A stretch of 15,235 nucleotides of DNA from a virus. Shown one piece after another: positions 1-14,856 of the stretch. Below the pieces are notes generated by a model, which saw only the letters and a program-made list of their open reading frames with translations, was not told the origin of the DNA and searched no databases. Within the stretch, counting starts at the first letter, position 1. Every line of letters starts with the position of its first letter. The translations under genes were made by a program, and so were the position numbers. The stretch lies in the IMG/VR virus record IMGVR_UViG_3300012352_000399, positions 1 to 15,235 of that record; one strand, given 5' to 3'.

Positions 1-55
1 GTCATAACCAATATTCCATCTGGTCTATAGAATAGGTCTTTGGCATAGGGATATA
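1..55. repeat. 55-bp exact direct terminal repeat, copy 1 (identical to 15181..15235); circularisation overlap
   Basis: gtcataaccaatattccatctggtctatagaataggtctttggcatagggatata occurs at both window ends with no mismatch. 55 is a common assembler k-mer length, so this is probably an assembly overlap of a circular or concatemeric molecule. Confidence 0.95.
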
Positions 56-142
56 GTTTGTATTCTCCTGTGCCTGTGCTTATAAAGTCTCTTGGATCCA
101 CTAGTTCTGCCGTCCTTGCATTGTAGTATAAGTATACATGAA

Positions 143-172
143 CAAAGAAAAAAGCCCAATAGCTGGCGGGCT
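143..172 (-). terminator. Candidate intrinsic terminator closing the regulatory operon
   Basis: The minus strand reads AGCCCGCCAGCTATTGGGCT (AGCCC/GGGCT stem) followed by TTTTTCTTTG, 59 nt after the stop of the 107-aa ORF. The stem is short (5 bp plus G-U), so this is a weak to moderate call. Confidence 0.4.
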
Positions 173-230
173 ACTGAGCTTTAATCTTTACCTAGGGGTA
201 GGTTTTGTCATTTGGCAACGACAAATATAA

Positions 231-554
231 TTATAGCATTTTCTTCTGTACAAAGCTAGAGTTGAACTTCGTGTTTACTTTCTTTTCTTTCTTCACTGGA
301 GGATTAGGATCATAGAGATATACTGCTTCTCTCCAAGTCCAGAACTTATTCCTCTTCTTCTGAGCCATTTCGAATTCATCCATCCATAATAGAATCTCAG
401 CATCTAGTTGTTCTTGTGTTAGTTTAATCATATCTTCCATCTTGTGATTAGACCAAAAGGATTTAAGTAGTCCGTTTTCTTTTACTGTTTTACCTGTGGT
501 ATCTACCTTAGAATTATAGCTAACCCGCTTTTTTCCTGCGTCACTTCTTGCCAT
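231..554 (-). CDS. Hypothetical protein, 107 aa, last gene of the regulatory operon
   Basis: Co-oriented ORF with a 14-nt overlap on the upstream gene. It is Lys-rich at both ends with a W/F-rich centre (FWTWREAVYLYDPNPP). No motif recognised. Confidence 0.55.
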   Translation of the reverse strand: MARSDAGKKRVSYNSKVDTTGKTVKENGLLKSFWSNHKMEDMIKLTQEQLDAEILLWMDEFEMAQKKRNKFWTWREAVYLYDPNPPVKKEKKVNTKFNSSFVQKKML

Positions 555-933
555 TTAGCATTGCCTTTCGTCTGGCGTTATATGATCTGACTCTCCAACA
601 TGGTTTACAATATGTGTTCAATTTGTCAAAGGAGTTGGCTCTATGACCAAACTGGCTACGAGGCTTTTTAAGACCACAATCTTGGCAGACCTTAGAGTCT
701 ACATGGACTTTAGCATCAGAGGCCTTTAAAACCTCGTTGTAGGCCTTGTAGTAGGTACTGTAGCATTCTCTACACCATGCCTGTAGGCTATTGCCTACCT
801 TTTTGTTAAATTCTTGTGCTTCTTTAGTTGTGTCACACTTGCTGCAATATTTCACGATTCTTGTAATCTCCATATTCTTTAGTTTTAATCTTATGGCAAG
901 GTTTGCATAAGGTCTGTAGGTTATTTGGTTCAT
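541..933 (-). CDS. Cys-rich protein with two tandem zinc-ribbon modules (putative DNA-binding)
   Basis: Two copies of C-x2-C...F...C-x2-C are present: CSKCDTTKEAQEFNKKVGNSLQAWCRECY and CQDCGLKKPRSQFGHRANSFDKLNTYCKPCW. I recall this module type from the N-termini of many phage HNH/homing endonucleases. The start is uncertain: M1 at 933 overlaps the HNH gene by 101 nt, and M21 at 873 overlaps it by 41 nt. Confidence 0.6.
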   Translation of the reverse strand: MNQITYRPYANLAIRLKLKNMEITRIVKYCSKCDTTKEAQEFNKKVGNSLQAWCRECYSTYYKAYNEVLKASDAKVHVDSKVCQDCGLKKPRSQFGHRANSFDKLNTYCKPCWRVRSYNARRKAMLNGKK

Positions 934-1135
934 TATTACTTCTGTCCCCGTCGATATGATCTACATCTAATAGCTTCTTATCTAGTGGAACTGTAAGGCA
1001 TCTCTCACAATACCCCTTTTTAGCCTTCCGTGCCTGTCTACGGCAGTTTAAACAGCTAGACCTATACTGTCTAGTCCCTTTCTTGCTAATACCCTTTAAA
1101 GCGGCGTTTCTGCCGCATTTGCATTTAGGCCTCAT
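833..1135 (-). CDS. HNH endonuclease (zinc-finger HNH, packaging-associated type)
   Basis: A canonical motif is present: CERC...DVDHIDGDRSNNEPNNLQTLCKPCHKIKT (CxxC, DH, N, CxxCH). In the circular map it lies near terS/terL, as in cos phages that use an HNH partner for terminase. Confidence 0.85.
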   Translation of the reverse strand: MRPKCKCGRNAALKGISKKGTRQYRSSCLNCRRQARKAKKGYCERCLTVPLDKKLLDVDHIDGDRSNNEPNNLQTLCKPCHKIKTKEYGDYKNREILQQV

Positions 1136-1250
1136 TTGTCACCAACCATCCAACTGGGGCGGCGGCGGCGGTACACTCTTTACAGTGATCAAGGAAGCGA
1201 AGGTATTTCTTACAAGTGTTGCAAAAGTATATAGTTCCTTCTTTTACCAT
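1125..1250 (-). CDS. Unannotated 41-aa zinc-ribbon ORF (below the ORF-track size cut-off)
   Basis: Hand translation gives MVKEGTIYFCNTCKKYLRFLDHCKECTAAAAPVGWLVTNEA, with CxxC-x9-CxxC. Its ATG overlaps the stop of the upstream 118-aa gene (TCATGGTAA), and its stop overlaps the HNH start by 11 nt. It fills an otherwise unexplained 108-nt gap. Confidence 0.35.
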   Translation of the reverse strand: MVKEGTIYFCNTCKKYLRFLDHCKECTAAAAPVGWLVTNEA

Positions 1251-1600
1251 GACATTAACTCTTCTACTTGAATCAAAGAAAGATCAGTTGATTGTTTTGT
1301 ATTTATATTTGTATTTAATTTGTATTTAGGTGGTAATGTCATGCCGTAGGGTACGGCTTCAGGTACCGTAGGTTCGTAATGATTTGCCGCATCATAGTTT
1401 CTTGTCTGTTTTAGATAGCCAGCTTCTACTAATTCTTTCTTGGCAGTTCTGACTGTTCTTTCACATAATCCAGTTCCATCTGCTATTTGCTGATTAGTTG
1501 GTCTGGATGGATTGTATGAGGCAATTATCAATGCTACAATTCTAGCCTTGGTGCTTAGATTAGATTCTCTAATTAGGCGTAAGTACTGGAAGTAATCCAT
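1244..1600 (-). CDS. Winged helix-turn-helix protein (HTH_36 / DnaD-N-like; candidate replication initiator or transcription regulator)
   Basis: LSTKARIVALIIASYNPSRPTNQQIADGTGLCERTVRTAKKELVEAGYL is a typical wHTH segment. The gene has a strong SD (AAAGGAGAT) and is the first gene after a consensus promoter. Confidence 0.65.
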   Translation of the reverse strand: MDYFQYLRLIRESNLSTKARIVALIIASYNPSRPTNQQIADGTGLCERTVRTAKKELVEAGYLKQTRNYDAANHYEPTVPEAVPYGMTLPPKYKLNTNINTKQSTDLSLIQVEELMSW

Positions 1601-1625
1601 GTTATCTCCTTTCTGGTGAGATAAC
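1601..1625 (-). promoter_or_regulatory. Perfect 8-bp inverted repeat GTTATCTC-N9-GAGATAAC overlapping the RBS (operator and/or SD-sequestering hairpin)
   Basis: The minus strand reads GTTATCTCACCAGAAAGGAGATAAC followed directly by ATG. The right arm contains part of the AGGAG Shine-Dalgarno. The repeat starts about 4 nt after the -10 hexamer. Confidence 0.5.
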
Positions 1626-1628
1626 TAA

Positions 1629-1657
1629 ATTATAATGTATTATTTCTCTTATGTCAA
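1629..1657 (-). promoter_or_regulatory. Consensus sigma70-type promoter (TTGACA-17 nt-TATAAT)
   Basis: The minus strand reads TTGACA (1657..1652), then a 17-nt spacer TAAGAGAAATAATACAT, then TATAAT (1634..1629). It sits in the 57-nt gap between the 67-aa ORF stop and the wHTH gene. Both hexamers match consensus perfectly. Confidence 0.65.
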
Positions 1658-1861
1658 CTACTTGTCTTTGTTCATGAAATGCACATATATGTCATGCTGA
1701 CGCTGTTCAAGTCTATTTAACTGATCTTTCATAGATGAGCCTGAATTGGGGACTAATTCGGACAAATAGTGCTTTACTAACCATCTAACCATACCTATAA
1801 GTTGTACTTGTATTAATAGGATCCCGCCCACTATTGATAGAATCATCTGTATATTGCTCAT
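1658..1861 (-). CDS. Small membrane protein, holin-like candidate (67 aa)
   Basis: It has one N-terminal hydrophobic helix (ILSIVGGILLIQVQLIGMV) and a charged C-terminal tail. Its start shares an ATGA overlap with the upstream gene, and it is the last gene of the structural operon. No adjacent endolysin was recognised. Confidence 0.45.
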   Translation of the reverse strand: MSNIQMILSIVGGILLIQVQLIGMVRWLVKHYLSELVPNSGSSMKDQLNRLEQRQHDIYVHFMNKDK

Positions 1862-2574
1862 GGTCTAATTATCTTTCCATTCCTAGCTGCCGCTTGCTGA
1901 TAAGCTGAGTAACCTGGCATTCTATCTAATCCAGATGCAGATCCACCAAATGCTTTTGTCTTTCCTTTTCCAAATCTTTTAATAAGAAATTGCCTATTTT
2001 TTTCTCTGTTAAATCTATTGTCTGCAGTTGTTCCACCAGTTCTGTAACCGTTTCTAGCTGCCGCCGCTTGGTAATTAAAAAGTGCAGTTGCGGTATTCGA
2101 ATATACATTTCTTGGTGTTGCTAAAAATCTTCCAGAACCAAACATTAATCTATCTACAGCATTTTCCATAAACGATTGATGACAAGCATCACGAAGTTCA
2201 TCAAGCATTTCTGCAACTTCATCAATTATTAAGTTAATAGCATTGTAATATATATCGCCAAGCTCATCTTGCATAACATTGACGAACTCATCTGGATCAT
2301 ATTCTTCTTGTGTTAATTCACAATAATCTAGTGCCTTTGGAGAAAATTCATCTACTATAAGAGTTGTTTGTCCAGCATTACCAGCTTGATCTTCAGCCCA
2401 AGAAAGTATGTCATTGACTCCTTCTTCCCAGGATTGTTCATCAAATTGAGGAGCAAGGTCTAATGCATCTTCAGCACCAAAACCTCTTCTGCCTCTTACC
2501 CTTGAAAGATTTCTAAGACCATTAGCTCTGTATGAACTTCTCATGGCCCTTCTGAGAAGGAATCTAATTAACAC
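1858..2574 (-). CDS. Hypothetical virion-module protein, 238 aa, with segregated charge blocks
   Basis: It has an Arg-rich N-terminus, a strongly acidic centre (EDQAG...EEYDPDEF...DEVAEMLDELRD) and a basic Gly-rich C-terminus with a duplicated Q-AAARNG motif. The annotated start is GTG at 2574, overlapping the upstream stop by 1 nt. An alternative ATG lies at 2544. Confidence 0.55.
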   Translation of the reverse strand: MLIRFLLRRAMRSSYRANGLRNLSRVRGRRGFGAEDALDLAPQFDEQSWEEGVNDILSWAEDQAGNAGQTTLIVDEFSPKALDYCELTQEEYDPDEFVNVMQDELGDIYYNAINLIIDEVAEMLDELRDACHQSFMENAVDRLMFGSGRFLATPRNVYSNTATALFNYQAAAARNGYRTGGTTADNRFNREKNRQFLIKRFGKGKTKAFGGSASGLDRMPGYSAYQQAAARNGKIIRP

Positions 2575-2933
2575 TAAATATCACCAGATATTATTTTTGC
2601 TTTATATTTAAATCCTTCAACTATGCCAAGAGCATTTACAACTGGCTGTGTAGACTTGATTTCCCATGTGCCATCAACATAAATTTCATTTCCATTTCTA
2701 TCTAAAATGTTTGATAGATACCCAGCTTTTTGTAACTTGGAGTTAGTTAATACAACTATATCGCCAATAAATGTTGTGCTTAAAGCAAGTATTATCTGCT
2801 CAGGAACTTCAGTATAAACATTTTCTGTTACTGATCCGTCTGCAGATGTTACCTTTGTATACCCATAGTAGTCAGCAGTATAATTATATTTAGCTCTTCT
2901 AAGCGTATCAAACAACATTATATTTTCTTCCAA
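2574..2933 (-). CDS. Possible head-closure / head-tail joining protein (119 aa)
   Basis: Size, position directly after the connector gene, and a beta-rich C-terminus (GNEIYVDGTWEIKSTQPV) are compatible with SPP1 gp16-like head-closure proteins. The call rests on synteny and weak pattern only. Confidence 0.4.
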   Translation of the reverse strand: MEENIMLFDTLRRAKYNYTADYYGYTKVTSADGSVTENVYTEVPEQIILALSTTFIGDIVVLTNSKLQKAGYLSNILDRNGNEIYVDGTWEIKSTQPVVNALGIVEGFKYKAKIISGDI

Positions 2934-3307
2934 TCAACATTGTTTGGCCACTGGAATATCTTACCAGTTCTGTAGCTTCTTGATCTATTCCAAGATAAGC
3001 CGTTTGCAGCAATGATTGCTAGTGGTGACATAAATGGTGACATCATTCTAGTATCAAAGTTAACCATGGCATCTGTCTGCCCCTGGCTTGTTAAAGCTGC
3101 TTGCTTAAAAACAATATCCTCATTCTCAAGCATGTAGGCTGTTTGATAAGAAGTAATCTTATCTAGCAATATTAAATCGGATGGAGCTTCAATATCAATT
3201 TCATCTCTTCCAATATAGATTTCTACGATTGCTTGGGCTCTCATAATTAATGGGAGTGTTACATCGTATCCAGTATATTCTTTTACGCTATTAATTGTAC
3301 TAAACAT
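2918..3307 (-). CDS. Head-tail connector / adaptor (gp6-like, Phage_connect_1-type)
   Basis: The N-terminal pattern INSVKEYTGYDVTLPLIMRAQAIVEIYIGRDEI resembles the usual gp6-like signature (...aA...ie.y.gr). Size is about 130 aa, and the gene overlaps its neighbours. Confidence 0.55.
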   Translation of the reverse strand: MFSTINSVKEYTGYDVTLPLIMRAQAIVEIYIGRDEIDIEAPSDLILLDKITSYQTAYMLENEDIVFKQAALTSQGQTDAMVNFDTRMMSPFMSPLAIIAANGLSWNRSRSYRTGKIFQWPNNVDWKKI

Positions 3308-3642
3308 TATCTGAATCTCCTTCCTAGTTCACGCACTCTTATAGTGTGTGTTGTTGTAAAGTCTAACTTACCTGTCCCGCTCAATTTAAGCTGAAACACA
3401 TAGTCTCCAGGGTATTCAAAAAGGCTGCGGTCTGTTGGCCACTCAAACACAATTGTTCCAAGATCTTTGGCAGCCGTATTAAGAGTTGCACCTGTGAGGC
3501 TTATTTCTTCATTTCTTGATCCTAATAGAACTGCTTCAATTGTAGTATAGGCAGAGAGGTTAAAATCATTTCCATCCTGGTCCTTTACTTGAATCGAAAG
3601 AGGTCTTGCAGGAATTTGGTCTATCCAGTATTGACTAATCAT
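3307..3642 (-). CDS. Small beta-sandwich structural protein (Ig-like / BppU_N-like, tentative)
   Basis: LSIQVKDQDGNDFNLSAYTTIEAVLL...GTIVFEWP...GDYVFQLKL follows the alternating-strand pattern common in phage Ig-like fibre or baseplate accessory domains. Its start shares an ATGA overlap with the stop of the giant ORF. Confidence 0.45.
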   Translation of the reverse strand: MISQYWIDQIPARPLSIQVKDQDGNDFNLSAYTTIEAVLLGSRNEEISLTGATLNTAAKDLGTIVFEWPTDRSLFEYPGDYVFQLKLSGTGKLDFTTTHTIRVRELGRRFR

Positions 3643-6600
3643 TTGATTACGTCCTCTCTTATATATAGTATTGGGTCTACATGTATTATTTGTAGAACAA
3701 CTTGATCTTCTGAAGCAACATTGGATCTGCTATTTGCAAACATTCCTGCATTAGCTACCATTGTTGGTGCTGCAATTGTTGAGCCTGGCTTCACAATTGT
3801 AGCATTTGCTTCCATAGGTAGTACAAGTATCTTTGTTATTCCACTAGTAAAGTTTGTCTCAGGTAATGTTGCAGTTGCAACCATAGATTGAGCTGCAAAG
3901 TCATTAAACTTATCTACTATTTCTGTAGCATTTGGCATTTCTGCTGTTGCTGCAAAAGCCTGTGGTCTAACAACAGTTCCCTCAAGAAATTCTCTATTAG
4001 ATAACCAACGGAATCCTCTTGTAGGCATTGATGGCACTTCAAATGATACTGTTGGGTATTGCCATGAATATGTACTAGCAAAGAACACACTGCCTTGAGG
4101 TACAGATCTAAATGATAATCCGCCATTCTTATTTATTTTTCTTACCTTAACTGTTTCTTTTTGTACGCCAGCTTTATTAAAGTTAGTGTCTAATTCAAAA
4201 TCACCGCTTCTTTGTTGCAAAAGATGCATACCGTTTAATGACCAATATGGAGTTTCTGCTTCAACAAAATCTTGAGCAAGCAGTTCATCTCTTGTTTCTA
4301 AAGTAATGATTCCATTTTCATAAGCGTAATTTACCCAGTAAACACTTGTAAATTCAACTACACCACTTTCTAAACATTTGTTTATTTCTTCAGTAAAGTT
4401 TACATATATCTTTCCGCCAACTTGTGTTCCATCAAGAACATCACCTGGCTCAATAATAATAGACTGAGCATAATTTCTATAAGGATTTTCAATTAAATCC
4501 AATCCTCTACGAACAGTATTAGCAAAGGCTGTAATAATCTTTCCAGCTTTTACATTTTCAAATGGTGTAGCAAGATATCCAGATCTATTATTATTAGCTC
4601 GTGCACCAGTTGTTGAAATAAGAAACTCATCTCCAACAGCTAAAGCATCTTTGTGTTCATATTTTGCAAATTGTCTATCTGCCCCGCCCCAACGGTACTC
4701 ATCTGTAGATACCCAATATGCTGCTTGAGTTTTAACTAATGCTGGATAATCAGTGATATCTGGATGAGTATTAACAATTCTAGTTCTATTGTTCTTCCAT
4801 GTATCTTCCCATCCAAGAGGTTCATCGTATTCTGGTGGGACTGGAAGATCAGCAGCACCTTCAATGCCAAACATCTGTGTTGGTGAATAAGGATCGCTGT
4901 AATTACCTTGACCTACATTGTCATCCATGTCTGGAACTGTCTCAACACGATCTACAATCTTAAGATCAAGAGCAAGCTGAGCATTTGCAACCATTAAAGA
5001 TATACCAGTATCTACAGCTGCACGAAGACTCTTTACAAAGTCTTCAAATATCTTTGATTCTCTTAAATTAAAGTATGCGTCAACAACTTCAGCTCCAGTA
5101 AATGCATCCTTTTCGTTAGGATCGTTTGGATAGTTCTTGAACATAATCATGTCAAATTTAGATAAATCAATATCATTAATTAAATCAATATATCTTGGAG
5201 CATCTGTCAAAGGATCTCTAAATGTGCGACGCTTATTAACTAAAGCGTATGGAGCATTTGTTGTATTTTGAGACTGACTTACAAATTGTATAAAGTTAGT
5301 TTTTCCAATATTTTCAACTCCACCATAAGCTTCAACCTTAACAAGATCAGAAACCCACTTACCAGTAATATCTACTGGAAATACATCCCAGCCTTCAAAT
5401 TCTTGTGGAGGTGCTGTAAAGTAATCAAGAGTTGTAAGAGTATCTGGAGATTCATCACTTGTGTATGGACCAGTACCAAACGGTGTTCCAGTTTGCGGAG
5501 ATGATGTAGGCCAGAAGTAAAGCATTAATGCTCTTCCTCTATTTCCTGCAGCCTTTGATTCTTGTGCAATTTCTGCTGTTGCAGTAGCTGGCTCAGCATG
5601 AACTGGTTCATATTTAATAGATGCTGTGTAATGATCTGTTACTTCATCTGACTCAACAAAGAATGCTGCATCGTATGACCAAGCAGATGTTTCAAAGTCT
5701 GACTGCCATCTTGTATTTGAGTGGTTTGATCCAATAATGTATGGACGAATTCCAGCTCCTGATGCAAAATTGCTATCTGCAAAGAACTGAATGTCTAGCT
5801 GACCATCAATCCAGAACTGTACACGACCATCAAATCCGTACTGGATAATAATGTGGTGCCATGCTCCATCATCTATTCTCTTATTCCCATAAGCTGTAAC
5901 AAATGAGTATTTAGCAATACTTGTGTTATCTGGGTGAGCAAATATTCTAGCTTCGCCGATTCCCTGTGTAGCACGAGTTGCATACAACTTACCATCAATT
6001 AAACCAATTGAAGATGTTGCGCTTTGGTATCCAATAAAGCTTTGCTGGAATCCCTGAGCCATAACCTGATTGGCTTTTGTCGATTTAAATGTAAACTCAA
6101 GGCTGTATCCGTTATTTGAAACGTAATTGTTTTCAGGAATTGAGAATTGTATGTTTCTAAATCTAACTGCTTTTCTTTCGTAATCATCAAATGTTCCAAC
6201 CTCAAGAACAGGTGTTGGGGTAGCTGTTTGAAATGCATTTGTTGCAACTGCATATTGAGTATCAGTGCTTGTATCTGTTGGTGTATCTGTAACAATGCTA
6301 CGAGGCAAGTTATTAATAATCTTATTTGTATTTGCCCCGCCAATACTTTGTGTAACATCATCAAATAGCTTTAAGAATGCTGAGGCTGAAGATGTTCCAG
6401 CACTGCCAGCTAAGTTATCAGTCTTCCATCTTTCGCCATTAACTACAGAGTGCTGTAGGTATAGCTTCTGATACCAGATATCGTCTGTAATTAATTTGTA
6501 AGCAGGTGGGCTTACAAATATTGCTTGGACTGGAATTGATTGTGCAACAATTAAAGCGCCCAGGGTAGATGATATTGCTGGATCAACCATCTCTGCAGTA

Positions 6601-9215
6601 GCAATACCTGGGTTTGAATTAAAGTTGCCTGGTACAAATACTTCTGCTTCTGGCATCATTGCTGATGCATCCATATGTAGGACCTGGTTATTTTCTCCAA
6701 TATCCCATCCTGGATTTTCGCCTTGGGCATCTGCGGTCATAGGATCAGCAAGATTTTCTGTGTTCTTTGTTGCCTCATAGTTAGGATTTAAGAATAATGC
6801 ATCCACTAACATTGGCGGAATAAATGGAAATACGTTTGCAAATTCTGCAGATACAATCATTGCTGGTTCTGCAATTGTTGGACCAAATCCTGCTGCTATT
6901 GTTGGATCAACTGCTAAAGCAGATACTGTCCATTCTGTTTGATTCTGTATTGCTTGGTAAAGATCAAATACATCATTTGCACCCAATGCACCTGGGATTA
7001 ATGCAAATTCATCAATGTATGTATCTTTAGATGCTGTTCCAGTAGAATTGTATTTGGTTTCTGCAGAGACACCCCATGCTCCGAAGTCAGTTAAATTTAC
7101 TGCAGCAGTAGACATAGTTGCTACTTCTTTTCCATCAAGATAGAGTTTAAATGAACTTCCATCTTTTACACCAACTGCATGGTGCCATTTATTGTCACCA
7201 ACATTTATAGTTGTAGTAAGGGAATCAGTATCTGTTGGGCCAAATCCTTGATTTATTCTAGCTGTTAAATGTCCAGTGGAACCAGACATTGCGATTGTAA
7301 TACCAGCTCCAATAAATCCATACATACCAGCAGAAAATAATATTTGTTCAAATGATGTGTAGCCATTTGCTTTAAAGACTACAGATGCTGTTTGACGATT
7401 ATCTGCTGAGTATAATCCATCTACTCCATCCCAATCACCTTGTAAATATGTATCTGCATTTGTAAATCTATAAGCTTTGCCGTTTAAAGAAGCATTTCCA
7501 AATGTTATGGCTTCTCCATTTATGCCAGCAGAAAATGCACGGATAGAACCAAAGTTAGTAGGAGTTCCAGTTGTATCATCTAGTCGATACTCAAGGCTTG
7601 GTGCGTATGAATTAGTTAGATCATTAAATGCACTTTCAAATCTAACGCGAGGTTGAACCATTCCAGCAGCAGCTTGAATTGGAACAGCCGCAGCTGCCAT
7701 AATTGCAGCTCTTTCTGTAGATGTAATTGTGTTGTATCCAGTTACAAACATATGAGATACATAGGCATACTTAGTATTAGCACCAGTTTGACCAGTTAAT
7801 CCAAATACAGCAGTACCTACAGCTGGACTATTATTGTTACCAGGTGTTGCAGTACTGATTTCTGTTCCATTATCAATACTAATCTTAATTGTATTTCCTG
7901 AAGCAGATCTCCTTGCATGAACAAAGTGCCAATTGTTGTCGCACCAATTTGTCTGATTATTTGATACGCTACTAGCTGTATAAGTTGTACCATTATGGTT
8001 CATAAGGAACCTAATGTATCCATCAGGTGTAGCACCTATTTGGTAGTTATTGTCAGTAAATAATTCTTGATAGGTTATAAAGTTAGTATCTTTTGCACCA
8101 AATCCAGATTCTGCTTTAAACCAGAATCCAATAGAAAATTCATTGTCTGTAATTTCTGGTGAGTAAGGTTCATTTGTTCCAAATGCTAGCTGTACAATAT
8201 TGTTTGGTGCACCTCTATTGCCTTTAAGCTTTAAGCCACCAGATCCTTGAATACCAAGTTGTGGCCCAGTTGTTGTTTCATTATAAAATGCCCATGCTGT
8301 TTCAGCATCTCCGCCGCTTCCGTAGTTATGAATCTTCTTTACTTCATCAAACTTATACCATTGTTCTAGTGATCTGGTTGCTAAATAGTCATCAAGCATA
8401 ACTGGAGTATCAAAGTTGGATACCTGAATGTCTCCAATATCTGCAGTAGCTGTTGCAGGTGTTTCAATAATTACTATTTCAGTTGATATTGCTGGATCTA
8501 CTGCAAGGGCTGATGCTGTAGATACTTCAGCTGTTGTAGTTCTATCTGCAAACTCCAACATATGATTTGCTACAAATGTATCTACCTGAGCAGTAGTTCT
8601 TGCGCTTCCATTGTAAAATGCATAAAAGTCAATTGTTGCTTCTGAATAGGCAGATGGAGATGCACCGCTTGAATTAGTATATGAACCAAGGTTAACAAAT
8701 CCACTATAATTTAAATTACCAAGTGTGCTTTTAGTTCCGATAAGAACGCCATCTACATATAATCTAAAGCCAGCTGTTCCATTATGATAAGAAACTACTA
8801 TATGATGAAATTTACCATCACAAAGATTGACTGATCCAGTTATAGAGTTTCCACCATAACTTACTGTATTAAATGTTGCTCTGATATAACCATTTGATGT
8901 AATTTGTATTGAAGTTGTTTGTAAAGATGATAACAAATATACATCAGAAGCTGGAGCTGAACTTCTTCTAAATACTATTTCATGTTCAAAATTATTAATA
9001 CCATATGATGCACCCCATTGATGTAATACACGGCCATCTGATCCAAAGTCATAAGATGCATTACCAGTAAGAGAGTTTGGATTTTGTGTAACAGTGCCAA
9101 ATTGACTAGAAGAAACAGAAAGTCCAGAATAATTTGCTTTTTCAGTTGAAGATGAGTCTAAGTTTGTTGCAAGTGTAAAGTTTCCGTCTGCTTGGGCTAC
9201 TGTATATAATGACAT
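3639..9215 (-). CDS. Giant 1858-aa virion protein with four LamG/concanavalin-A-like lectin repeats and an unassigned C-terminal region (putative tail fibre/spike or adhesin)
   Basis: This is an uninterrupted 5577-nt ORF. The LamG (Laminin_G_3-type) core signature W/F-H-H...LY-DG recurs four times: DGKFHHIVVSYHNGTAGFRLYVDG (aa 133-156), NNWHFVHARRSASGNTIKISIDNG (427-450), DNKWHHAVGVKDGSSFKLYLDGK (674-696) and DDGAWHHIIIQYGFDGRVQFWIDGQ (1115-1139). No SD precedes the ATG. Confidence 0.9.
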   Translation of the reverse strand: MSLYTVAQADGNFTLATNLDSSSTEKANYSGLSVSSSQFGTVTQNPNSLTGNASYDFGSDGRVLHQWGASYGINNFEHEIVFRRSSAPASDVYLLSSLQTTSIQITSNGYIRATFNTVSYGGNSITGSVNLCDGKFHHIVVSYHNGTAGFRLYVDGVLIGTKSTLGNLNYSGFVNLGSYTNSSGASPSAYSEATIDFYAFYNGSARTTAQVDTFVANHMLEFADRTTTAEVSTASALAVDPAISTEIVIIETPATATADIGDIQVSNFDTPVMLDDYLATRSLEQWYKFDEVKKIHNYGSGGDAETAWAFYNETTTGPQLGIQGSGGLKLKGNRGAPNNIVQLAFGTNEPYSPEITDNEFSIGFWFKAESGFGAKDTNFITYQELFTDNNYQIGATPDGYIRFLMNHNGTTYTASSVSNNQTNWCDNNWHFVHARRSASGNTIKISIDNGTEISTATPGNNNSPAVGTAVFGLTGQTGANTKYAYVSHMFVTGYNTITSTERAAIMAAAAVPIQAAAGMVQPRVRFESAFNDLTNSYAPSLEYRLDDTTGTPTNFGSIRAFSAGINGEAITFGNASLNGKAYRFTNADTYLQGDWDGVDGLYSADNRQTASVVFKANGYTSFEQILFSAGMYGFIGAGITIAMSGSTGHLTARINQGFGPTDTDSLTTTINVGDNKWHHAVGVKDGSSFKLYLDGKEVATMSTAAVNLTDFGAWGVSAETKYNSTGTASKDTYIDEFALIPGALGANDVFDLYQAIQNQTEWTVSALAVDPTIAAGFGPTIAEPAMIVSAEFANVFPFIPPMLVDALFLNPNYEATKNTENLADPMTADAQGENPGWDIGENNQVLHMDASAMMPEAEVFVPGNFNSNPGIATAEMVDPAISSTLGALIVAQSIPVQAIFVSPPAYKLITDDIWYQKLYLQHSVVNGERWKTDNLAGSAGTSSASAFLKLFDDVTQSIGGANTNKIINNLPRSIVTDTPTDTSTDTQYAVATNAFQTATPTPVLEVGTFDDYERKAVRFRNIQFSIPENNYVSNNGYSLEFTFKSTKANQVMAQGFQQSFIGYQSATSSIGLIDGKLYATRATQGIGEARIFAHPDNTSIAKYSFVTAYGNKRIDDGAWHHIIIQYGFDGRVQFWIDGQLDIQFFADSNFASGAGIRPYIIGSNHSNTRWQSDFETSAWSYDAAFFVESDEVTDHYTASIKYEPVHAEPATATAEIAQESKAAGNRGRALMLYFWPTSSPQTGTPFGTGPYTSDESPDTLTTLDYFTAPPQEFEGWDVFPVDITGKWVSDLVKVEAYGGVENIGKTNFIQFVSQSQNTTNAPYALVNKRRTFRDPLTDAPRYIDLINDIDLSKFDMIMFKNYPNDPNEKDAFTGAEVVDAYFNLRESKIFEDFVKSLRAAVDTGISLMVANAQLALDLKIVDRVETVPDMDDNVGQGNYSDPYSPTQMFGIEGAADLPVPPEYDEPLGWEDTWKNNRTRIVNTHPDITDYPALVKTQAAYWVSTDEYRWGGADRQFAKYEHKDALAVGDEFLISTTGARANNNRSGYLATPFENVKAGKIITAFANTVRRGLDLIENPYRNYAQSIIIEPGDVLDGTQVGGKIYVNFTEEINKCLESGVVEFTSVYWVNYAYENGIITLETRDELLAQDFVEAETPYWSLNGMHLLQQRSGDFELDTNFNKAGVQKETVKVRKINKNGGLSFRSVPQGSVFFASTYSWQYPTVSFEVPSMPTRGFRWLSNREFLEGTVVRPQAFAATAEMPNATEIVDKFNDFAAQSMVATATLPETNFTSGITKILVLPMEANATIVKPGSTIAAPTMVANAGMFANSRSNVASEDQVVLQIIHVDPILYIREDVIK

Positions 9216-9246
9216 AAAAATAGGCTGCTGGCGTTATGCCGCAGCC
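9216..9246 (-). terminator. Intrinsic-terminator-like hairpin plus T-run immediately upstream of the giant ORF
   Basis: The minus strand reads GGCTGCGGC-ATAAC-GCC(A)GCAGCC followed by TATTTTT and then the giant-ORF ATG. The stem is 9 bp and GC-rich with one bulge and a 5-nt loop. The stop codon of the 66-aa ORF lies in the loop. Confidence 0.5.
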
Positions 9247-9434
9247 CGTACTCCAATTCTGAATGATTCTGGGTTGATTGTTGAAATGCTGTGTCCGCCT
9301 ATAGAAATGATTGGAGCAAAGGAGAGGTTGGAGACTACTGGAGTAAGATCACCAGAAAGAGACTCTACAGTAATTTGGACTACGACTAGTTCGCAACTTG
9401 CGATTAGTGCGCCAACCTCTACCTTTGCATCCAT
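9234..9434 (-). CDS. Small hypothetical protein, 66 aa (capsid-module ORF)
   Basis: It is co-oriented, fills the gap between the 143-aa gene and the giant ORF, and has AAGG upstream overlapping the previous stop. It shares the higher G+C of the capsid block. A plus-strand ORF also overlaps here, so coding status is unsure. Confidence 0.4.
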   Translation of the reverse strand: MDAKVEVGALIASCELVVVQITVESLSGDLTPVVSNLSFAPIISIGGHSISTINPESFRIGVRAAA

Positions 9435-9445
9435 GCGTAATTACC

Positions 9446-9877
9446 TTACGCTACAGTGATTCGAACAATACCAGTCGAATCCCATGTGATTGTGAAGTTA
9501 CCATTGGTTGAAGACTGGTCTGAACCGAAGTCTACGTATCCAATGAGAGCTGATGTGCTTGATGTGCCTGTTGAATCATATACAACTGCATAACGAGCTG
9601 TGATAGTTGATGAAGACCATGTAACATCTGCAGCGTCAAGAACGATTACGTTTGTGCCTGAATCGTATGTTGCTGTCTTAGATGCTAGTGTGATTCCACC
9701 AGCTGTGTAACCTGTACCTGTTACTTCGTATGTAGAAACATCGTTGAAGTAATCATGTGTATCTTGGTTAGGTGTGTAGGATGAAGTAAGTAGAGCAACC
9801 TTGATTGTGTCAGAGTCGAAATCTACTTCCTTGTTGAGTGCCTTAAGTAGGAAGTTACCGTATAGTTTAGAAGCCAT
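9446..9877 (-). CDS. Conserved-looking structural protein, 143 aa (capsid decoration, head fibre or other virion protein; function unassigned)
   Basis: It lies directly after the major capsid gene and has an AGGGGGA SD. The composition is beta-rich and Thr/Ser/Gly-rich (YEVTGTGYTAGGITLASKTATYDSGTNVIVLDAADVTW), typical of virion surface proteins. Confidence 0.6.
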   Translation of the reverse strand: MASKLYGNFLLKALNKEVDFDSDTIKVALLTSSYTPNQDTHDYFNDVSTYEVTGTGYTAGGITLASKTATYDSGTNVIVLDAADVTWSSSTITARYAVVYDSTGTSSTSALIGYVDFGSDQSSTNGNFTITWDSTGIVRITVA

Positions 9878-9891
9878 TAGTCATTTCCCCC

Positions 9892-10797
9892 TTACGCTGA
9901 AGTCTTGCGAACGATTGCGAACGCTTCAGGAGCCGCTACTGCGAATCCACGACGAACACGAGTCTTTAGCAAGACGCCATCCTTTGAAAAGTCTGCATCA
10001 CGAGAGATTGCAGATTCTACTGTGCTACGAACACCGTTGATCATCATTTGGCGGTTACCAACGATAAGCAATGGGTCTCCTGTTGGAGCTGATGTAGCTG
10101 CAGCTGAAGTTGCTGCACCGTATGAGATTACTAGTGGGTATCCGAATAATGATCCTGGACGAGCACCTAGTGGATCTGGAAGAACAAGGTTTCCACCTGT
10201 TGTTTCCATCTGACGAATGAGGTTAAGCATCTTTGGGTGAACGATAACAACTGTGTTAGCTGCATCGAAGTACTTTGACTCTTCTGCCTTGCCTAGAGCG
10301 TTAGAAATATCTGCGAACTCTAGATCTCCTGCAGTTGAAATGATGTTTGCACCTGAGTTGTACTGTGAAACTGAATAGTAAACAGAGTTGAACGGCTGTC
10401 CGTCATCTCCGTCGCCTACAGCTGTTACACCAAGGCATGCATTGTCATACTTACGAGCCCACTGTGAAGCCCATTCTCTCTTGTATGTGTTGAGTGTGTC
10501 AACGAGTGAATCGTTAACATCTTCCTCTGAAATGTTGAAAATCTGTGCGTACTTCTTAGCTGTAAGAACTACCTCATCCAGAGTTGTATCTGAATTAGGA
10601 ATATCTACGCCTTCTGCTACGATTGTTGGTGCATCTGATACGAAGCGTGGAACGCCCTTTGTACGAGATGACATATTCTCACGACGAGCAAATGCTTCTA
10701 CTACAGAGTTAGCTGTTGTTGCTTGAATAGCAACTGAGCCTTTTTCCTCTGGAATATAGCCATTACCTTCTGTGAGATCTGTGCGACCTGCGGCCAT
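9892..10797 (-). CDS. Major capsid protein, HK97 fold (Phage_capsid family)
   Basis: It is 301 aa with a strong SD (AAAGGAGATTAACATG) and follows the scaffold gene. The segment TLDEVVLTAKKYAQIFNISEEDVNDSLVD matches the characteristic HK97-family pattern (..L.a.K.a....is.El..Ds). Confidence 0.85.
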   Translation of the reverse strand: MAAGRTDLTEGNGYIPEEKGSVAIQATTANSVVEAFARRENMSSRTKGVPRFVSDAPTIVAEGVDIPNSDTTLDEVVLTAKKYAQIFNISEEDVNDSLVDTLNTYKREWASQWARKYDNACLGVTAVGDGDDGQPFNSVYYSVSQYNSGANIISTAGDLEFADISNALGKAEESKYFDAANTVVIVHPKMLNLIRQMETTGGNLVLPDPLGARPGSLFGYPLVISYGAATSAAATSAPTGDPLLIVGNRQMMINGVRSTVESAISRDADFSKDGVLLKTRVRRGFAVAAPEAFAIVRKTSA

Positions 10798-10820
10798 GTT
10801 AATCTCCTTTTAATTAGTTA

Positions 10821-10902
10821 ATTTGGGTTTTTGAACATATAATCGTCCGAATATATTAATCGCAACCCAAATGTCCATTTGGAGCTGCATAAGACAATTA
10901 TA
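10821..10902 (-). promoter_or_regulatory. Structured leader upstream of the capsid gene, with a perfect TATAAT hexamer and mutually exclusive hairpins
   Basis: On the minus strand, TATAAT (10902..10897) lies 10 nt after the scaffold stop, with only a poor -35. Downstream, CCAAAT-GGAC-ATTTGG forms a 6-bp hairpin, and ATTTGGGTT pairs with AACCCAAAT 34 nt further on (9 bp). The two structures share the ATTTGG segment. Confidence 0.3.
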
Positions 10903-10911
10903 CCGTACTTA

Positions 10912-11361
10912 TTATTTCTTTAAAACCATTTTTGCTTGCAAATCTGATGCAGATTGAGGAACTTCTAATGAAGCAGCTACTCCTGAGTCAGCTTTACCAG
11001 CTACAATGAATTTTGGATCGAATAATTCTGGGAAGTCTGTCTTTAATGTGCTGATTTGCTCATCAAGACCTGCAACCTCAAAATCTTCAGTTAAAGATAA
11101 TGCATCCATCTTAATATACTTATTTAGTTTATCTCCATGGGCAATACCTAATGATGCAAGATGTTTATTAACATGCTCCATCACTAACTTTGACTGGAAT
11201 TGGGAAATCTTGGAGACTGATTCATTTACCTGTGCCTCCAAGGCTTCCTTTTCCAATCTAAACTTCTTTGCCTCCGCCTTCGCTTTATCTAAAGCATCTA
11301 AGACGGCTTTAGGATCACGAATCTCGTCAGATGTACCTTCTACTTGATTCTGTTCTTCCAT
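10912..11361 (-). CDS. Scaffolding protein (149 aa, coiled-coil)
   Basis: It sits between the portal and capsid genes. It is acidic and Lys/Glu/Ala-rich with heptad-like character (DALDKAKAEAKKFRLEKEALEAQVNESVSKISQFQSKL). Confidence 0.7.
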   Translation of the reverse strand: MEEQNQVEGTSDEIRDPKAVLDALDKAKAEAKKFRLEKEALEAQVNESVSKISQFQSKLVMEHVNKHLASLGIAHGDKLNKYIKMDALSLTEDFEVAGLDEQISTLKTDFPELFDPKFIVAGKADSGVAASLEVPQSASDLQAKMVLKK

Positions 11362-11362
11362 T

Positions 11363-12769
11363 TTATTCTCCTGTATTGTTTTGCTCAGCGGCTACCTGTT
11401 GTAGTGCCAAGTTGTTTGTATTTAATCCAGTTCCACGCAAAGCAACCTCTGTTGAGTTTGCATTGTCTGTTGTATTTGCCATTGCTTCATCAGCAATAAT
11501 CTTTGCAATTTCTGGGTCATATCCAAGCTCAAGAAGGATCTGCTCCAAAGGAACTCCTACTGACTTCTTGCGAACTGCGATATCCCATTGGTCTAGAGAA
11601 TCGATTGATTCTGGAGACTTCCAATCAATATCTACATCAGCAACAATGCCTTCGATCTTAAGCATAAACTTAAATAGATCTCTCCATGTTGAACCAAGAG
11701 CAAGCTGGCGGTTAAGAACCTTCTTGAATAATGGTGCTTCAGCTACACGCAAAGCTTGTCCTGATGGAAGGTATGTTGTGCTTGAGAAGTAATGAACTGG
11801 AGTTGATGTAATTGCAGCCATGTCTGAAACAAACTCATTAACTGGGTTTGTAAATGTTGATGGGTCTGCTGCTGGGAATTGTCCAACAGATTGAACTCCT
11901 TGCAAGTACCAGAGTTGTCCTGGACCATTTTGCAATGCTCCAATGTTTTCTCTAGCTGTATCATCTTCTGAGAAGTCATCTATTTCAGATGAGCTTCCAC
12001 CATTTGATAATGCATAACGCTGTGGAGCACCCTGATAGTCTACTGTCATCATGTGAGTTGATATCAGCTTGTTGATAGCATCCTGTGGGCCAAATGCATC
12101 AGCATGCTCTGGTCTTCCGTATGGCTTATTTGTTCTGAAATGGAAAACTGGAATTTCATTCCAAGGATTAACCACAGTTTCAACCAAAGTAAGATTTGGC
12201 AGCCCATTTAGAGAATCAAGTTCACCTAGACCCTCATACTTTTCAATTCTATCTGTGTAATACATATTGATCTTGATAACTTTGCGGTCAGCGGCATCTG
12301 TAATCTGCCACATCTTTGTTGCAAATGACTTAACACGAGGGTTCTCCTGATCATATACAAGAGTAGTAGTCATTGGTGAGTTGTAATCTATTGCTAGATT
12401 CCCGTCCATATCTGGCCATACAATTGCATAGCAATCGCCATAAACAAGTGCATTTCTATGAATTTCGTTAATATCAAGCTTCAAATCTGTCTGTTCCCAG
12501 ATTTTATTAATATATGCGTCTCCTGCTGGGCTAGTTGTCTCAACTTGCTCAATTTCTAGACGATTGTGTACTGCATCTACTACAGTCTTGCTAAAATTGA
12601 ATCTAAACGGAGTAACTCCCGAAAATCTTGACTGTTCGTTTCTAAATAATCTGTACCAGCGTTGATGAGTAAATACTTCATCATTTGCGCCTTCGTAATA
12701 CGCTTCAGCGACCATATATCGATCTCTTTTGTTAATTATCTGGTCTAAAGCTAATTTAATATCTGACAT
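11363..12769 (-). CDS. Portal protein (SPP1 gp6-like)
   Basis: It is 468 aa, lies immediately after terL, and has a strong SD (AAGGAGATAAAATG). The N-terminal AEAYYEGANDEVF motif and overall layout are typical of gp6-like portals. Confidence 0.85.
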   Translation of the reverse strand: MSDIKLALDQIINKRDRYMVAEAYYEGANDEVFTHQRWYRLFRNEQSRFSGVTPFRFNFSKTVVDAVHNRLEIEQVETTSPAGDAYINKIWEQTDLKLDINEIHRNALVYGDCYAIVWPDMDGNLAIDYNSPMTTTLVYDQENPRVKSFATKMWQITDAADRKVIKINMYYTDRIEKYEGLGELDSLNGLPNLTLVETVVNPWNEIPVFHFRTNKPYGRPEHADAFGPQDAINKLISTHMMTVDYQGAPQRYALSNGGSSSEIDDFSEDDTARENIGALQNGPGQLWYLQGVQSVGQFPAADPSTFTNPVNEFVSDMAAITSTPVHYFSSTTYLPSGQALRVAEAPLFKKVLNRQLALGSTWRDLFKFMLKIEGIVADVDIDWKSPESIDSLDQWDIAVRKKSVGVPLEQILLELGYDPEIAKIIADEAMANTTDNANSTEVALRGTGLNTNNLALQQVAAEQNNTGE

Positions 12770-12770
12770 T

Positions 12771-14261
12771 TTATCTCCTTAAGTAATTTAATTGCTTTAC
12801 AAATACTTTTGGAGTACTGTTATCCAAGAAGTATAGAATTCCTGACACTACTGCGTCCAGTACGTCATCGTGGCTTACCTTTGGGAATGACCACATTTGT
12901 TCTTCTAGAGCTGGGAAGTGTTGTGTATGTCTAACTTTGCCTTGCTGATAGAAGTTCAAAGCTTTTCCTGCACGGATTTGCTTTGATACGGATTGTCGAA
13001 TTGATTTGTAGCGAACTGGTATATGTTTAAACACATCTTGCCACAAATCGCCTCCCTGGTTTGTTTCTACGTATATAATACCAGGATTGTATGTTTCAAC
13101 CAAGGCTGAAACTCTGTCTGCTAGTTCAGATGGAGATACTTTAAGTTGAAATGCATCTCTTACATAAATGTTTCCATCTTCACCTCTGCTCAATACAGCA
13201 ATACCTGTATAGTCAGAAACTTTATTCTTTGTAACTGCAGGGTCAATAGATATGATCGTATTGCCGTAGTCCTCTTGATTTTCAATAATTACATCTTCAT
13301 ATGTCCAGAAATTACCATCAAGGTTCACAGGTTTGTTCATATAGTTCTTTGCGAAGTCTCTGAGGTGTCTTTGGCTGTTCAACCAGTCTAGAGGCCACTT
13401 CTCAGGCCATACAGAGCGTTCTGAGCCATCTTCAGCTGTCATAATGGCTGGATAGTAGTGTACGGCCACATTCTGGTCTGTAATCCACTCCAGTGCCTTA
13501 TCACGCTGGCCCTCAGAATGCTTTCTAAACTCATCCATCATAGAGTTTGGCATGGTTGTAGTACCCACAATAATCATGCGGGCATATATATTCATTGGGG
13601 CAATGTCGTCAAATACTGTTCTACGCTGCTGTCCTGCTTGGTATTCGGAGTAGTTCTTTTCACCTTTTTCGATATCATCAAGAATAATGAGGTCAGGGCG
13701 TTGGCCAAATACCTTTTTACCCAGTGAGTTAGTATCAATACCATTAGCGTCGAAGATAAAATCATTTGATTGAATAATACGCCAAGCGTTTGCTGCAAGG
13801 GAACGCCCAGTTGAACCGACAATCTTAGGTGTGCATAGTTCTGGGTAATCTGCTTTGAGATATTCATTAGTTTCCAATTCATTTTTAAAAGTAAGTAAGT
13901 GCGTCTCAGCTTGAGAAGCAGCATCTGAAAAAGCAGCCACAAATTTAATGTGACCATGGGCGGCGGCCCACATAGGTAGAATCAAAAAGATCCAGGTTGA
14001 CTTGCCACATTCTCTAGGAGCAATAAATGCATCTCTATTTTGCTTAGGAGAAGTTGGCTTATTGATCCAAGTCTTTCCATATTCAGCCAAATCCCAGTGA
14101 AATTCCGAAAGAGTGAGTTCATCTTCCATATTCTTTAAGTGATGTGGCAAATAAGTAAGCGCAAAGAGCATTGGATCATATTTAGTAAGTTCCCGCCTAC
14201 CTTCTGAATATGCCATCAATTCTGGATTAATGTCTTCCATGTATTTTGTTATATCATACAT
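12771..14261 (-). CDS. terL: Terminase large subunit
   Basis: It is 496 aa with a Walker A-like APRECGKST (aa 81-89) and Walker B LIILDDIE. The C-terminal nuclease-like region contains conserved acidic residues (ISIDPA..., HDDVLDAV). Confidence 0.92.
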   Translation of the reverse strand: MYDITKYMEDINPELMAYSEGRRELTKYDPMLFALTYLPHHLKNMEDELTLSEFHWDLAEYGKTWINKPTSPKQNRDAFIAPRECGKSTWIFLILPMWAAAHGHIKFVAAFSDAASQAETHLLTFKNELETNEYLKADYPELCTPKIVGSTGRSLAANAWRIIQSNDFIFDANGIDTNSLGKKVFGQRPDLIILDDIEKGEKNYSEYQAGQQRRTVFDDIAPMNIYARMIIVGTTTMPNSMMDEFRKHSEGQRDKALEWITDQNVAVHYYPAIMTAEDGSERSVWPEKWPLDWLNSQRHLRDFAKNYMNKPVNLDGNFWTYEDVIIENQEDYGNTIISIDPAVTKNKVSDYTGIAVLSRGEDGNIYVRDAFQLKVSPSELADRVSALVETYNPGIIYVETNQGGDLWQDVFKHIPVRYKSIRQSVSKQIRAGKALNFYQQGKVRHTQHFPALEEQMWSFPKVSHDDVLDAVVSGILYFLDNSTPKVFVKQLNYLRR

Positions 14262-14358
14262 TTTTACTGTCCAAATTTATTCTCAGTGGCAAAATTTATA
14301 TTTTTAAATTTAAGTACATTTCGGGTGGTCTGCATGCAATTGTCGACATATCTACTTA

Positions 14359-14829: not shown

Positions 14830-14840
14830 GTTAAACTCCT

Positions 14841-14856
14841 ATTTTTATATATATAT
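14841..14856. repeat. AT-only tract with (TA)5 microsatellite
   Basis: atttttatatatatat sits just upstream of the terS SD and about 50-80 bp from the paired DnaA boxes. Confidence 0.7.

Follow-up and report, generated by a model that had tools for sequence, protein, structure and literature searches.

Genome of the window and its giant gene

The stretch of viral DNA analyzed here, called the window (15,235 nt; positions 1 to 15,235 of IMG/VR record IMGVR_UViG_3300012352_000399), is dominated by a single giant open reading frame (ORF) at 3639..9215. It lies on the minus strand, as do all credible genes of the window, starts with ATG, and encodes 1858 aa plus a stop codon. An exact 55-nt overlap between positions 1–55 and 15181–15235 indicated a circular assembly with a unit of 15,180 nt, of which the 5577 nt of the giant ORF make up 36.7%. 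The G + C content of the window is 38%. The encoded protein is a homolog of gp8 of the Streptomyces satellite MiniFlayer, and the genes around it follow the order of the MiniFlayer genome. As developed below, the giant ORF is considered to encode the adsorption (fiber) protein of a MiniFlayer-type mini-phage, a reading in which we place about as much confidence as doubt.

The original prediction, made from the sequence of the window, described an 1858-aa ORF occupying about 37% of the genome, and this ORF proved to be real. At 38% G + C, approximately 6.6% of random codons are stops (calculated from composition), and the chance of an open frame of 1858 codons is ~1e-55. Chimeric or frameshifted mis-assembly, which had been considered as the alternative, was excluded because 67 colinear full-length homologs of the giant protein were found, measuring 1780–1960 aa and sharing 31–72% identity. 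The parts of the giant protein, from the N- to the C-terminus, are listed below; PMTASA denotes a short repeated motif that is described in a later section.

8541..9215, minus strand: LamG1, aa 1-225; Laminin_G_3 at aa 82-211, 49 bits (cut-off 27.6)
8406..8540, minus strand: linker 1, aa 226-270; two PMTASA-type motifs (STASALAVDP, TPATATADIG)
7686..8405, minus strand: LamG2, aa 271-510; Laminin_G_2 at aa 397-472, 31 bits (cut-off 22.9)
7611..7685, minus strand: linker 2, aa 511-535; one motif (PIQAAAGMVQP)
6942..7610, minus strand: LamG3, aa 536-758; Laminin_G_3 at aa ~605-749, 47 bits (cut-off 27.6)
6471..6941, minus strand: PMTASA-repeat region, aa 759-915; about seven motif units of 17-24 aa each
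6393..6470, minus strand: short helix plus the beginning of an indel-rich spacer of low conservation, aa 916-941
5589..6392, minus strand: LamG/concanavalin A (ConA)-like domain 4 (LamG4), aa 942-1209; AlphaFold2, Foldseek and a weak Laminin_G_3 match
5547..5588, minus strand: single motif EPATATAEIA ahead of the C-terminal module, aa 1210-1223; the MiniFlayer gp8 equivalent is APMVGSGSMP
3981..5546, minus strand: C-terminal module, aa 1224-1745; 520 aa, an alpha/beta subdomain and a beta-rich subdomain
3711..3980, minus strand: C-terminal tail, aa 1746-1835; four PMTASA-type motifs, predicted to be disordered
3642..3710, minus strand: C-terminal peptide, aa 1836-1858 (...EDQVVLQIIHVDPILYIREDVIK); conservation 0.83

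Four LamG domains

The giant protein had also been predicted to carry four LamG/concanavalin-like repeats, and all four were recovered. With the whole protein as the query, Pfam analysis gave Laminin_G_3 (E value, 5.4e-31) and Laminin_G_2 (E value, 4.1e-23), with four matched stretches each. When the protein was scanned segment by segment against the curated Pfam cut-offs (27.6 bits for Laminin_G_3 and 22.9 bits for Laminin_G_2), LamG1, LamG2, and LamG3 scored above them. LamG4 alone stayed below the threshold (Laminin_G_3 at aa ~1024-1171, 22 bits; E value, 1.9e-4) and was assigned by a structure model and Foldseek. The boundaries proposed earlier fit all four domains, except that LamG4 starts ~60 aa earlier than had been thought.

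In the family profile, LamG1 matched PDB entries 4qvs_A and 5hon_A over positions 13-211, and neurexin LNS matches were found for LamG2 at profile positions 366-476. The AlphaFold2 model of aa 740-1225 showed aa 942-1209 (LamG4) as a beta-sandwich with a predicted local distance difference test score (pLDDT) of 80–97. According to Foldseek, this model resembles the lectin-like jelly-roll subdomain of the receptor-binding domains of botulinum toxins (4isr_C; E value, 5.5e-8, prob 1.00) and LamG-like domain 4 of the arabinanase AbnA (5hon_A), among 190 matches at E ≤ 1e-3. The beta-sandwich fold was demonstrated by a model for LamG4 only, and the assignment of LamG1–3 comes from sequence profiles and PDB profile matches. 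Taken together, hidden Markov model (HMM) and fold matches relate all four domains to LamG/ConA-like lectin modules (PF13385 and PF02210; the N-subdomain of botulinum-toxin Hc; AbnA domain 4, PDB 5hon). No binding-site residues could be assigned in the LamG domains of the giant protein, and ligand binding is putative. The LamG1 fold begins at the first residues of the protein, which leaves no separate N-terminal anchor domain.

A recent internal duplication of LamG units was considered and rejected, because BLASTP of the giant protein against itself returned no internal match and only linker codons are repeated at the DNA level. The four LamG domains appear to be old and divergent units and not recent repeats.

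PMTASA motif and C-terminal module

The globular domains of the giant protein are each flanked by a short motif of the form P-M-T-A-S-A-x-hydrophobic..P, and a P-M-T-G-S-G form is found at equivalent places in gp8. A loose regular expression with a context score counted 10 copies in the window protein compared to 1.2 ± 1.1 in shuffled sequences, and 15 copies in gp8 compared to 1.6 ± 1.2; by eye, the window protein has ~15. In tandem, the copies are spaced at 17–24 aa. The PMTASA-repeat region (aa 759-915) is among the best-conserved stretches of the giant protein (conservation, 0.63–0.75) and is predicted to be disordered in the monomer (AlphaFold2 pLDDT, 31–45). Only small residues and hydrophobic positions are conserved in the motif. 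Copies such as PMTGSG and LPMTATA resemble the sortase signals LPXTG and LPXTA, but a sortase signal was rejected because the threonine is not conserved (PMIGSG, PMEGSG, PMVANA). Three roles are conceivable for the motif: repeat unit of a shaft, docking peptide, or site of processing.

Direct DNA repeats inside the giant ORF coincide with codons of the linker motif (VDPAIS/VDPTIA), one set at 6567-6587, 6891-6911, and 8481-8501 and another at 3746-3781 and 6845-6880; the copies at 6567-6587 and 6891-6911 encode VDP(A/T)I. Judging from their positions, these intragenic repeats are possible substrates for recombination and domain shuffling.

The C-terminal module was modeled with a pLDDT of mostly 75–95, and no match to it was detected in Pfam, PHROG, NCBIfam, or PDB sequence and profile searches. 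Foldseek analysis of aa 1191-1858 returned only family members from BFVD, and all other matches from PDB and BFVD had E values of 0.058 or higher; there was no significant match of the module to a nozzle, knob, tail tube, beta-helix, or hydrolase. The first subdomain bears a weak likeness to class-I glutamine amidotransferase-like folds (8hx9_B, E value 0.058, prob 0.66; 3r74, 3fij, and 1oi4) and to domains of glycoside hydrolase family 42 (GH42). A profile alignment of the module that includes gp8 (A2) contains 36 invariant columns, none of them Cys or His, and the first subdomain may be at most a non-catalytic look-alike of the class-I glutamine amidotransferase fold. Conservation within the family is highest in the C-terminal peptide that closes the protein, and gp8 has a recognizable version of it (GEQVILVLHNIDAILTIEEGT).

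The original prediction further suggested that the protein combines the functions of fiber, nozzle, and depolymerase. The fiber part of this suggestion agrees with the position of the gene in the structural block, its homology to a member of the MiniFlayer adsorption module, the presence of binding-type domains only, namely LamG and, in relatives, the carbohydrate-binding module CBM96, and the hypervariable, mosaic evolution described below. The nozzle and depolymerase parts found no support in the C-terminal module by Pfam, PHROG, NCBIfam, PDB-sequence, or significant Foldseek matches. No tailspike or depolymerase feature (beta-helix or glycoside-hydrolase/lyase domain) was detected in the giant protein by Pfam, PDB, or Foldseek.

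Relationship to MiniFlayer

The genes of the window, in minus-strand order from the small terminase gene to the 119-aa gene and followed by the remaining genes, are as follows.

minus strand, first in order: 156-aa homolog of the small terminase (TerS)
minus strand: 496-aa large terminase (TerL)
minus strand: 468-aa portal protein
minus strand: 149-aa scaffold protein
minus strand: 301-aa HK97-type capsid protein
9446..9877, minus strand: 143-aa protein of phrog_644, homolog of MiniFlayer gp6 (71% identity), a member of the adsorption module
9234..9434, minus strand: 66-aa protein at the position of MiniFlayer gp7, by synteny only; conserved in relatives, no match in libraries
3639..9215, minus strand: giant ORF, homolog of MiniFlayer gp8
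3307..3642, minus strand: 111-aa protein, 49% identity to MiniFlayer gp9 (annotated 'tail fiber')
2918..3307, minus strand: 129-aa protein, 46% identity to MiniFlayer gp10 (annotated head-to-tail adaptor)
minus strand: 119-aa small protein after the 129-aa gene
1858-2574, minus strand: 238-aa variable accessory gene
minus strand: 67-aa protein with one membrane-spanning helix
minus strand: 118-aa helix-turn-helix (HTH_36)/RepL-like protein
minus strand: 100-aa HNH protein
minus strand: 130-aa endonuclease VII-like protein

The order from TerS to the 129-aa gene is that of MiniFlayer gp1–gp10 (OQ357865), and the 111-aa gene starts within the stop codon of the giant ORF (ATGA). The terminase and head proteins share 33% (TerS), 46% (TerL), 41% (portal), 35% (scaffold), and 44% (capsid protein) identity with those of MiniFlayer. 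The giant protein aligns with gp8 (WDS61315.1; 1376 aa, 'hypothetical protein') over aa 1007-1854 with 25.6% identity (BLASTP E value, 3e-58), a region that spans LamG4, the C-terminal module, and the C-terminal tail. In a set of 50,697 phage records, relatives of the giant and 111-aa proteins were found in MiniFlayer only. Of the isolates, two Streptomyces satellites stand closest to the window, MiniFlayer with 46% and MulchRoom with 53–54% identity in TerL.

MiniFlayer lacks an integrase and replicases. Short fibers on its 42-nm head hold it to the neck of its helper, the siphovirus MindFlayer; a MiniFlayer particle is found on up to 80% of the helpers, and one attached to cells on its own has never been observed (deCarvalho et al., 2023; PMC10690885). 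In MulchRoom there is an integrase module instead, and the particles bear a long siphovirus-like tail of the helper's length, which the authors suggest to be helper-encoded (PMC10690885). The block of a tail fiber plus three hypothetical proteins (gp6–gp9) is absent from MulchRoom and was proposed as the adsorption module (PMC10690885). The gene for gp8 is the largest of MiniFlayer and one of the hypotheticals of this module, and the window carries the whole gp6–gp9 block.

The giant protein shares with gp8 its position between the capsid, gp6, and gp7 genes on one side and the gp9 and adaptor genes on the other, an N-terminal LamG domain, homologous LamG4, C-terminal module, tail, and terminal peptide, a short repeat around every domain, and a conserved hairpin ahead of the start codon. 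The window protein is 482 aa longer, however, and has the PMTASA motif in place of PMTGSG. It carries four LamG domains, whereas gp8 has LamG at the N-terminus and before the C-terminal module; gp8-length relatives carry CBM96, a family of carbohydrate-binding modules, between the LamG domains, and gp8 aa ~300-445 look similar by eye. The genomes also differ in G + C content (46.7% in MiniFlayer and 38% in the window) and in size (17.4 kb including a 1-kb terminal repeat in MiniFlayer and a unit of 15.2 kb in the window). On these comparisons, the giant protein appears to be a distant, expanded homolog of gp8 with four LamG domains and a different flavor of the motif, in a low-GC lineage.

Tail-borrowing capsid-forming satellites, namely MulchRoom (OQ784832), Ando, and the capsid-forming phage-inducible chromosomal islands (cf-PICIs), have related terminase, portal, scaffold, capsid, and adaptor genes, a small genome, and no replicase, but the 143-aa, giant, and 111-aa genes are missing from them. 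Identity between MulchRoom and the window is 54% in TerL and 40% in the capsid protein.

Like satellites of this type, the window encodes packaging and capsid proteins of its own within a genome of the 15–17-kb class. Outside the structural block, Pfam, PHROGs, and NCBIfam found only the HTH_36/RepL-like (118 aa), HNH, and endonuclease VII-like proteins. No polymerase, primase, helicase, integrase, lysin, tail-tube, or nozzle gene was detected in the window with these libraries, the absence of replicase, primase, and integrase being limited by HMM sensitivity for small ORFs. Because the genome is a relative of MiniFlayer without detectable replicase, integrase, lysin, and tail-tube genes, the large share of the genome devoted to the giant gene is best read as the mark of a helper-dependent head-plus-attachment particle, and not of a self-sufficient phage that has merged its tail functions.

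Distribution of the giant-protein family

An exhaustive HMMER search with the C-terminal part returned 306 cluster representatives at E ≤ 1e-3 and 186 at E ≤ 1e-30, a family of ~300 clusters when clustered at 50% identity. Its members fall into two length classes, about 1600–1990 aa (window-like) and about 1310–1450 aa (gp8-like). Among the best 150 of the 306, the C-terminal module stood at the C-terminal end in all full-length proteins (1300–2000 aa), and the remainder were fragments. A profile search of 5.8 billion proteins for the module in other contexts returned only fragments of the same family. One public member is CAB4149444.1, annotated as 'LamG domain containing protein [uncultured Caudovirales phage]'. 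In 30 diverse members, LamG was found in 27, CBM96 in 10, and an enzyme-type match in one.

The longest contigs bearing full-length homologs cluster at 14.4–16.7 kb, and longer ones (18–29 kb) consist of ~14.8-kb units joined head to tail and carry no bacterial genes. In IMG/VR, 78 loci of the lineage were found, with 34.7–39.8% G + C; seven of them have terminal overlaps that give units of 14,770–15,190 nt. The giant-protein family is restricted to ~15-kb units, and the question of whether homologs always occupy genomes of about this size was answered positively by contigs, concatemers, and IMG/VR loci alike. No relatives were found in 185,579 bacterial and archaeal species genomes (GTDB). 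Integration into a host was also rejected, the over-unit contigs being concatemers without bacterial flanks. Neither a description of this ~15-kb metagenomic lineage nor a characterization of gp8 was found in the literature searched.

The over-unit contigs L003-L006 (Joint Genome Institute contigs, 18–29 kb) each contain two non-identical ~14.8-kb units whose accessory genes differ. They are either co-occurring strains assembled through each other or real concatemers. The 55-nt overlap of the window is the assembler's circular closure, and an assembly closed in this way would collapse any terminal repeat of the MiniFlayer type across the small terminase gene.

Evolution of the giant gene

Mean identities across 39 genomes were 35% for the N-terminal part, 40% for the middle, and 45% for the C-terminal part of the giant protein, and 72% for the capsid protein, 74% for the portal, 87% for TerL, and 88% for the 143-aa protein. 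In relatives whose capsid protein is 87–98% identical to that of the window, the N-terminal part of the giant protein shares 29–62% and the C-terminal part 35–79% identity. For example, one relative (L026) has 94% identity in TerL, 93% in the portal, 98% in the capsid protein, and 31% in the N-terminal part of the giant protein. The relative P0047 is 54% identical in LamG1 and ~30% in the rest of the protein, and P0023 is 18% identical in LamG1 and 72–79% in the C-terminal module. The N-terminal part did not track the capsid protein (rho 0.08) and the C-terminal part did so partially (rho 0.53), values that serve as indications only, given that the genomes are related.

In its divergence and mosaicism the giant gene far exceeds every other structural gene, with single domains swapped independently, a pattern that is the classic signature of a receptor-binding protein. 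The gene behaves like a specificity determinant.

Hairpin before the start codon

An RNA hairpin is predicted immediately ahead of the giant ATG.

9219..9247, minus strand: hairpin followed by UAUUUUU; free energy -17.8 kcal/mol, z -4.0

The gap between the 66-aa gene and the giant ATG is 18 nt, the hairpin loop contains the stop codon of the upstream 66-aa gene, and no Shine-Dalgarno sequence was found ahead of the giant ORF. The hairpin is kept in all 22 relatives examined and is also present before MiniFlayer gp8 with a different stem sequence (L001 ~5835-5866). Attenuation or translational coupling may be its role, and it would probably lower the expression of the fiber relative to the head proteins or couple the translation of the 66-aa and giant genes.

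Other features of the genome

The 143-aa protein is far better conserved than the capsid protein, with 81–97% identity in relatives whose capsid protein falls to 44–58%. Members of its family, phrog_644, were found in 234 phage records, among them those of mycobacteriophages and phiCbK-like Caulobacter phages, and the family is absent from MulchRoom; a protein of Gordonia phage BlueNGold shares 60% identity with the 143-aa protein. The adaptor-like 129-aa and 119-aa genes (window 2574-3307) occur as discrete alleles, with identities of either about 61% and 55% or 89% and 83%. These alleles are coupled to each other (rho 0.69) and uncoupled from the head genes. The 238-aa gene is found only in some relatives (L003 type, 42% identity), and unrelated genes of 114–129 aa take its place in L007 and L008.

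The HTH_36 gene is closely preceded by a perfect sigma-70 consensus (TTGACA, 17 nt, TATAAT) on the minus strand at window 1629-1657, and the last small gene is followed by a terminator-like hairpin of 13 bp at 151-182 on the same strand. These two elements would outline a separate transcription unit for the non-structural genes. The G + C content is higher in the capsid-gene region (window 9000-10800; 0.43–0.45) than in the rest of the genome (0.35–0.40). Scans of the window for tRNA genes and Rfam families were empty.

Proposed function and alternative explanations

As the fiber of a MiniFlayer-type mini-phage, the giant protein would belong to a particle built from its own terminase, portal, scaffold, capsid, and adaptor genes, in a genome that seems to lack genes for replication, lysis, and a tail tube. 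The protein would be held at the portal-vertex complex by its conserved C-terminal module and its highly conserved last ~20 residues, an orientation suggested because the N-terminus opens directly with a LamG fold and the C-terminal peptide is the most conserved part. The PMTASA repeats would form extended, probably oligomeric linker segments of a shaft, which monomer prediction could not fold. Toward the free N-terminal end, the four LamG/ConA-like domains would recognize a ligand, either a glycan or a protein, and determine specificity. Homology with MiniFlayer makes the neck of the helper phage the most likely place of this ligand, with a host surface glycan as the alternative, and binding to the neck would bring satellite and helper to the same cell together.

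Podovirus fibers and tailspikes (T7 gp17, P22 gp9, and phi29 gp12) are trimers with a conserved N-terminal anchor and variable C-terminal binding or enzymatic domains. The giant gene is like theirs in being the largest, most variable, and mosaic structural gene, in encoding ligand-binding domains, and in adjoining adaptor genes. In contrast, the conserved part of the window protein is C-terminal and its N-terminus is itself a LamG domain, and no beta-helix, triple-beta-spiral, or intramolecular-chaperone domain was detected in it, unlike in podovirus fibers. By analogy, the giant protein would work like a podovirus tail fiber with the conserved end opposite, and without tailspike, depolymerase, or nozzle features.

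Several points weigh against this proposal. Phage fibers are normally anchored by their N-terminus, so that C-terminal anchoring would be unusual, and here it is read only from conservation patterns of non-independent genomes. LamG and CBM96 are mostly carbohydrate binders, and a host cell-wall ligand fits at least as well as the helper neck. The C-terminal part of the giant protein showed no co-variation with the 111-, 129-, and 119-aa proteins (rho 0.02–0.15), a result that is weak either way in non-independent genomes. The C-terminal module has no recognizable fold relative and is compatible with an enzymatic role. The protein gp8 is annotated as 'hypothetical', and virion membership of the gp8 family is presumed, as is any link between gp8 and the fibers seen by electron microscopy of MiniFlayer. 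Helper dependence would follow from homology and from missing genes, in a genome with several unannotated small ORFs. The role of the gp8-type block as an adsorption module for the helper neck was only proposed in the study of MiniFlayer (PMC10690885).

The window could instead represent an autonomous minimal podovirus in which the giant protein has the same fiber role; the HTH/RepL-like protein would recruit host enzymes, the LamG array would bind a polysaccharide of the host envelope, and no helper would be involved. We regard this as doubtful, although the carbohydrate-binding folds of LamG and CBM96, the conservation of the HTH_36 protein with its weak RepL similarity, the 67-aa protein, whose membrane-spanning helix would suit a holin, and the abundance of a lineage whose unit genomes assemble as complete circles are all in agreement with it. 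The three HMM libraries detected no lysin, DNA polymerase, primase, helicase, tail-tube, or nozzle gene, and the one relative that has been characterized shares the gene order and is a proven satellite, dependent on its helper and never observed alone on cells.

Two further explanations give the giant protein another role. A C-terminal module with enzymatic activity, such as glycan degradation or cell-wall modification, that the LamG domains would target to its substrate as in a depolymerase-type spike is improbable. Many invariant Asp, Asn, Arg, and Glu residues and the weak resemblance of the first subdomain to class-I glutamine-amidotransferase folds, including the non-catalytic domain of GH42 beta-galactosidases, speak for an enzyme, but the Foldseek matches with E values of 0.058 or higher have TM-scores of 0.14 or lower, sequence libraries and PDB gave no match, there is no beta-helix, and a module with no invariant Cys or His is not an active amidotransferase. 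Cleavage of the giant protein as a polyprotein, with a host or helper protease freeing the LamG and C-terminal proteins at the PMTASA/PMTGSG motifs, is very improbable. The motif does flank every globular domain, is strongly over-represented, is conserved from the window lineage to MiniFlayer, and lies in segments that are predicted to be disordered and hence accessible. However, no protease gene is present in the genome, runs of as many as seven motifs in tandem at a spacing of 17–24 aa suit a structural repeat better, and conservation is confined to the small and hydrophobic positions.

Implications for satellite phages

The largest 'hypothetical' gene of MiniFlayer belongs to a large conserved family found in ~15-kb head-plus-fiber genomes. 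This family provides a concrete candidate for the helper-gripping protein of MiniFlayer, for which a domain map of LamG beads, PMTASA repeat, C-terminal module, and terminal peptide is now available. The C-terminal module is also a sequence marker by which satellites of this kind could be recognized in metagenomes, a task in which homology to known satellites has failed so far.

Phanie is reportedly the other of only two satellites, beside MiniFlayer, that attach to the helper virion. Tentatively, the family may represent a widespread, metagenome-only lineage of helper-riding satellites in low-GC hosts, with genomes near 15.1 kb and a fiber in which a C-terminal anchor of novel fold, a PMTASA shaft, and interchangeable LamG/CBM beads grip the helper virion and not the cell. 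If the lineage is helper-dependent, virulent satellites would be much commoner and more widespread than the Streptomyces isolates suggest, and, if the whole proposal is true, virion-to-virion hitch-hiking would be a common strategy that extends beyond a Streptomyces curiosity.

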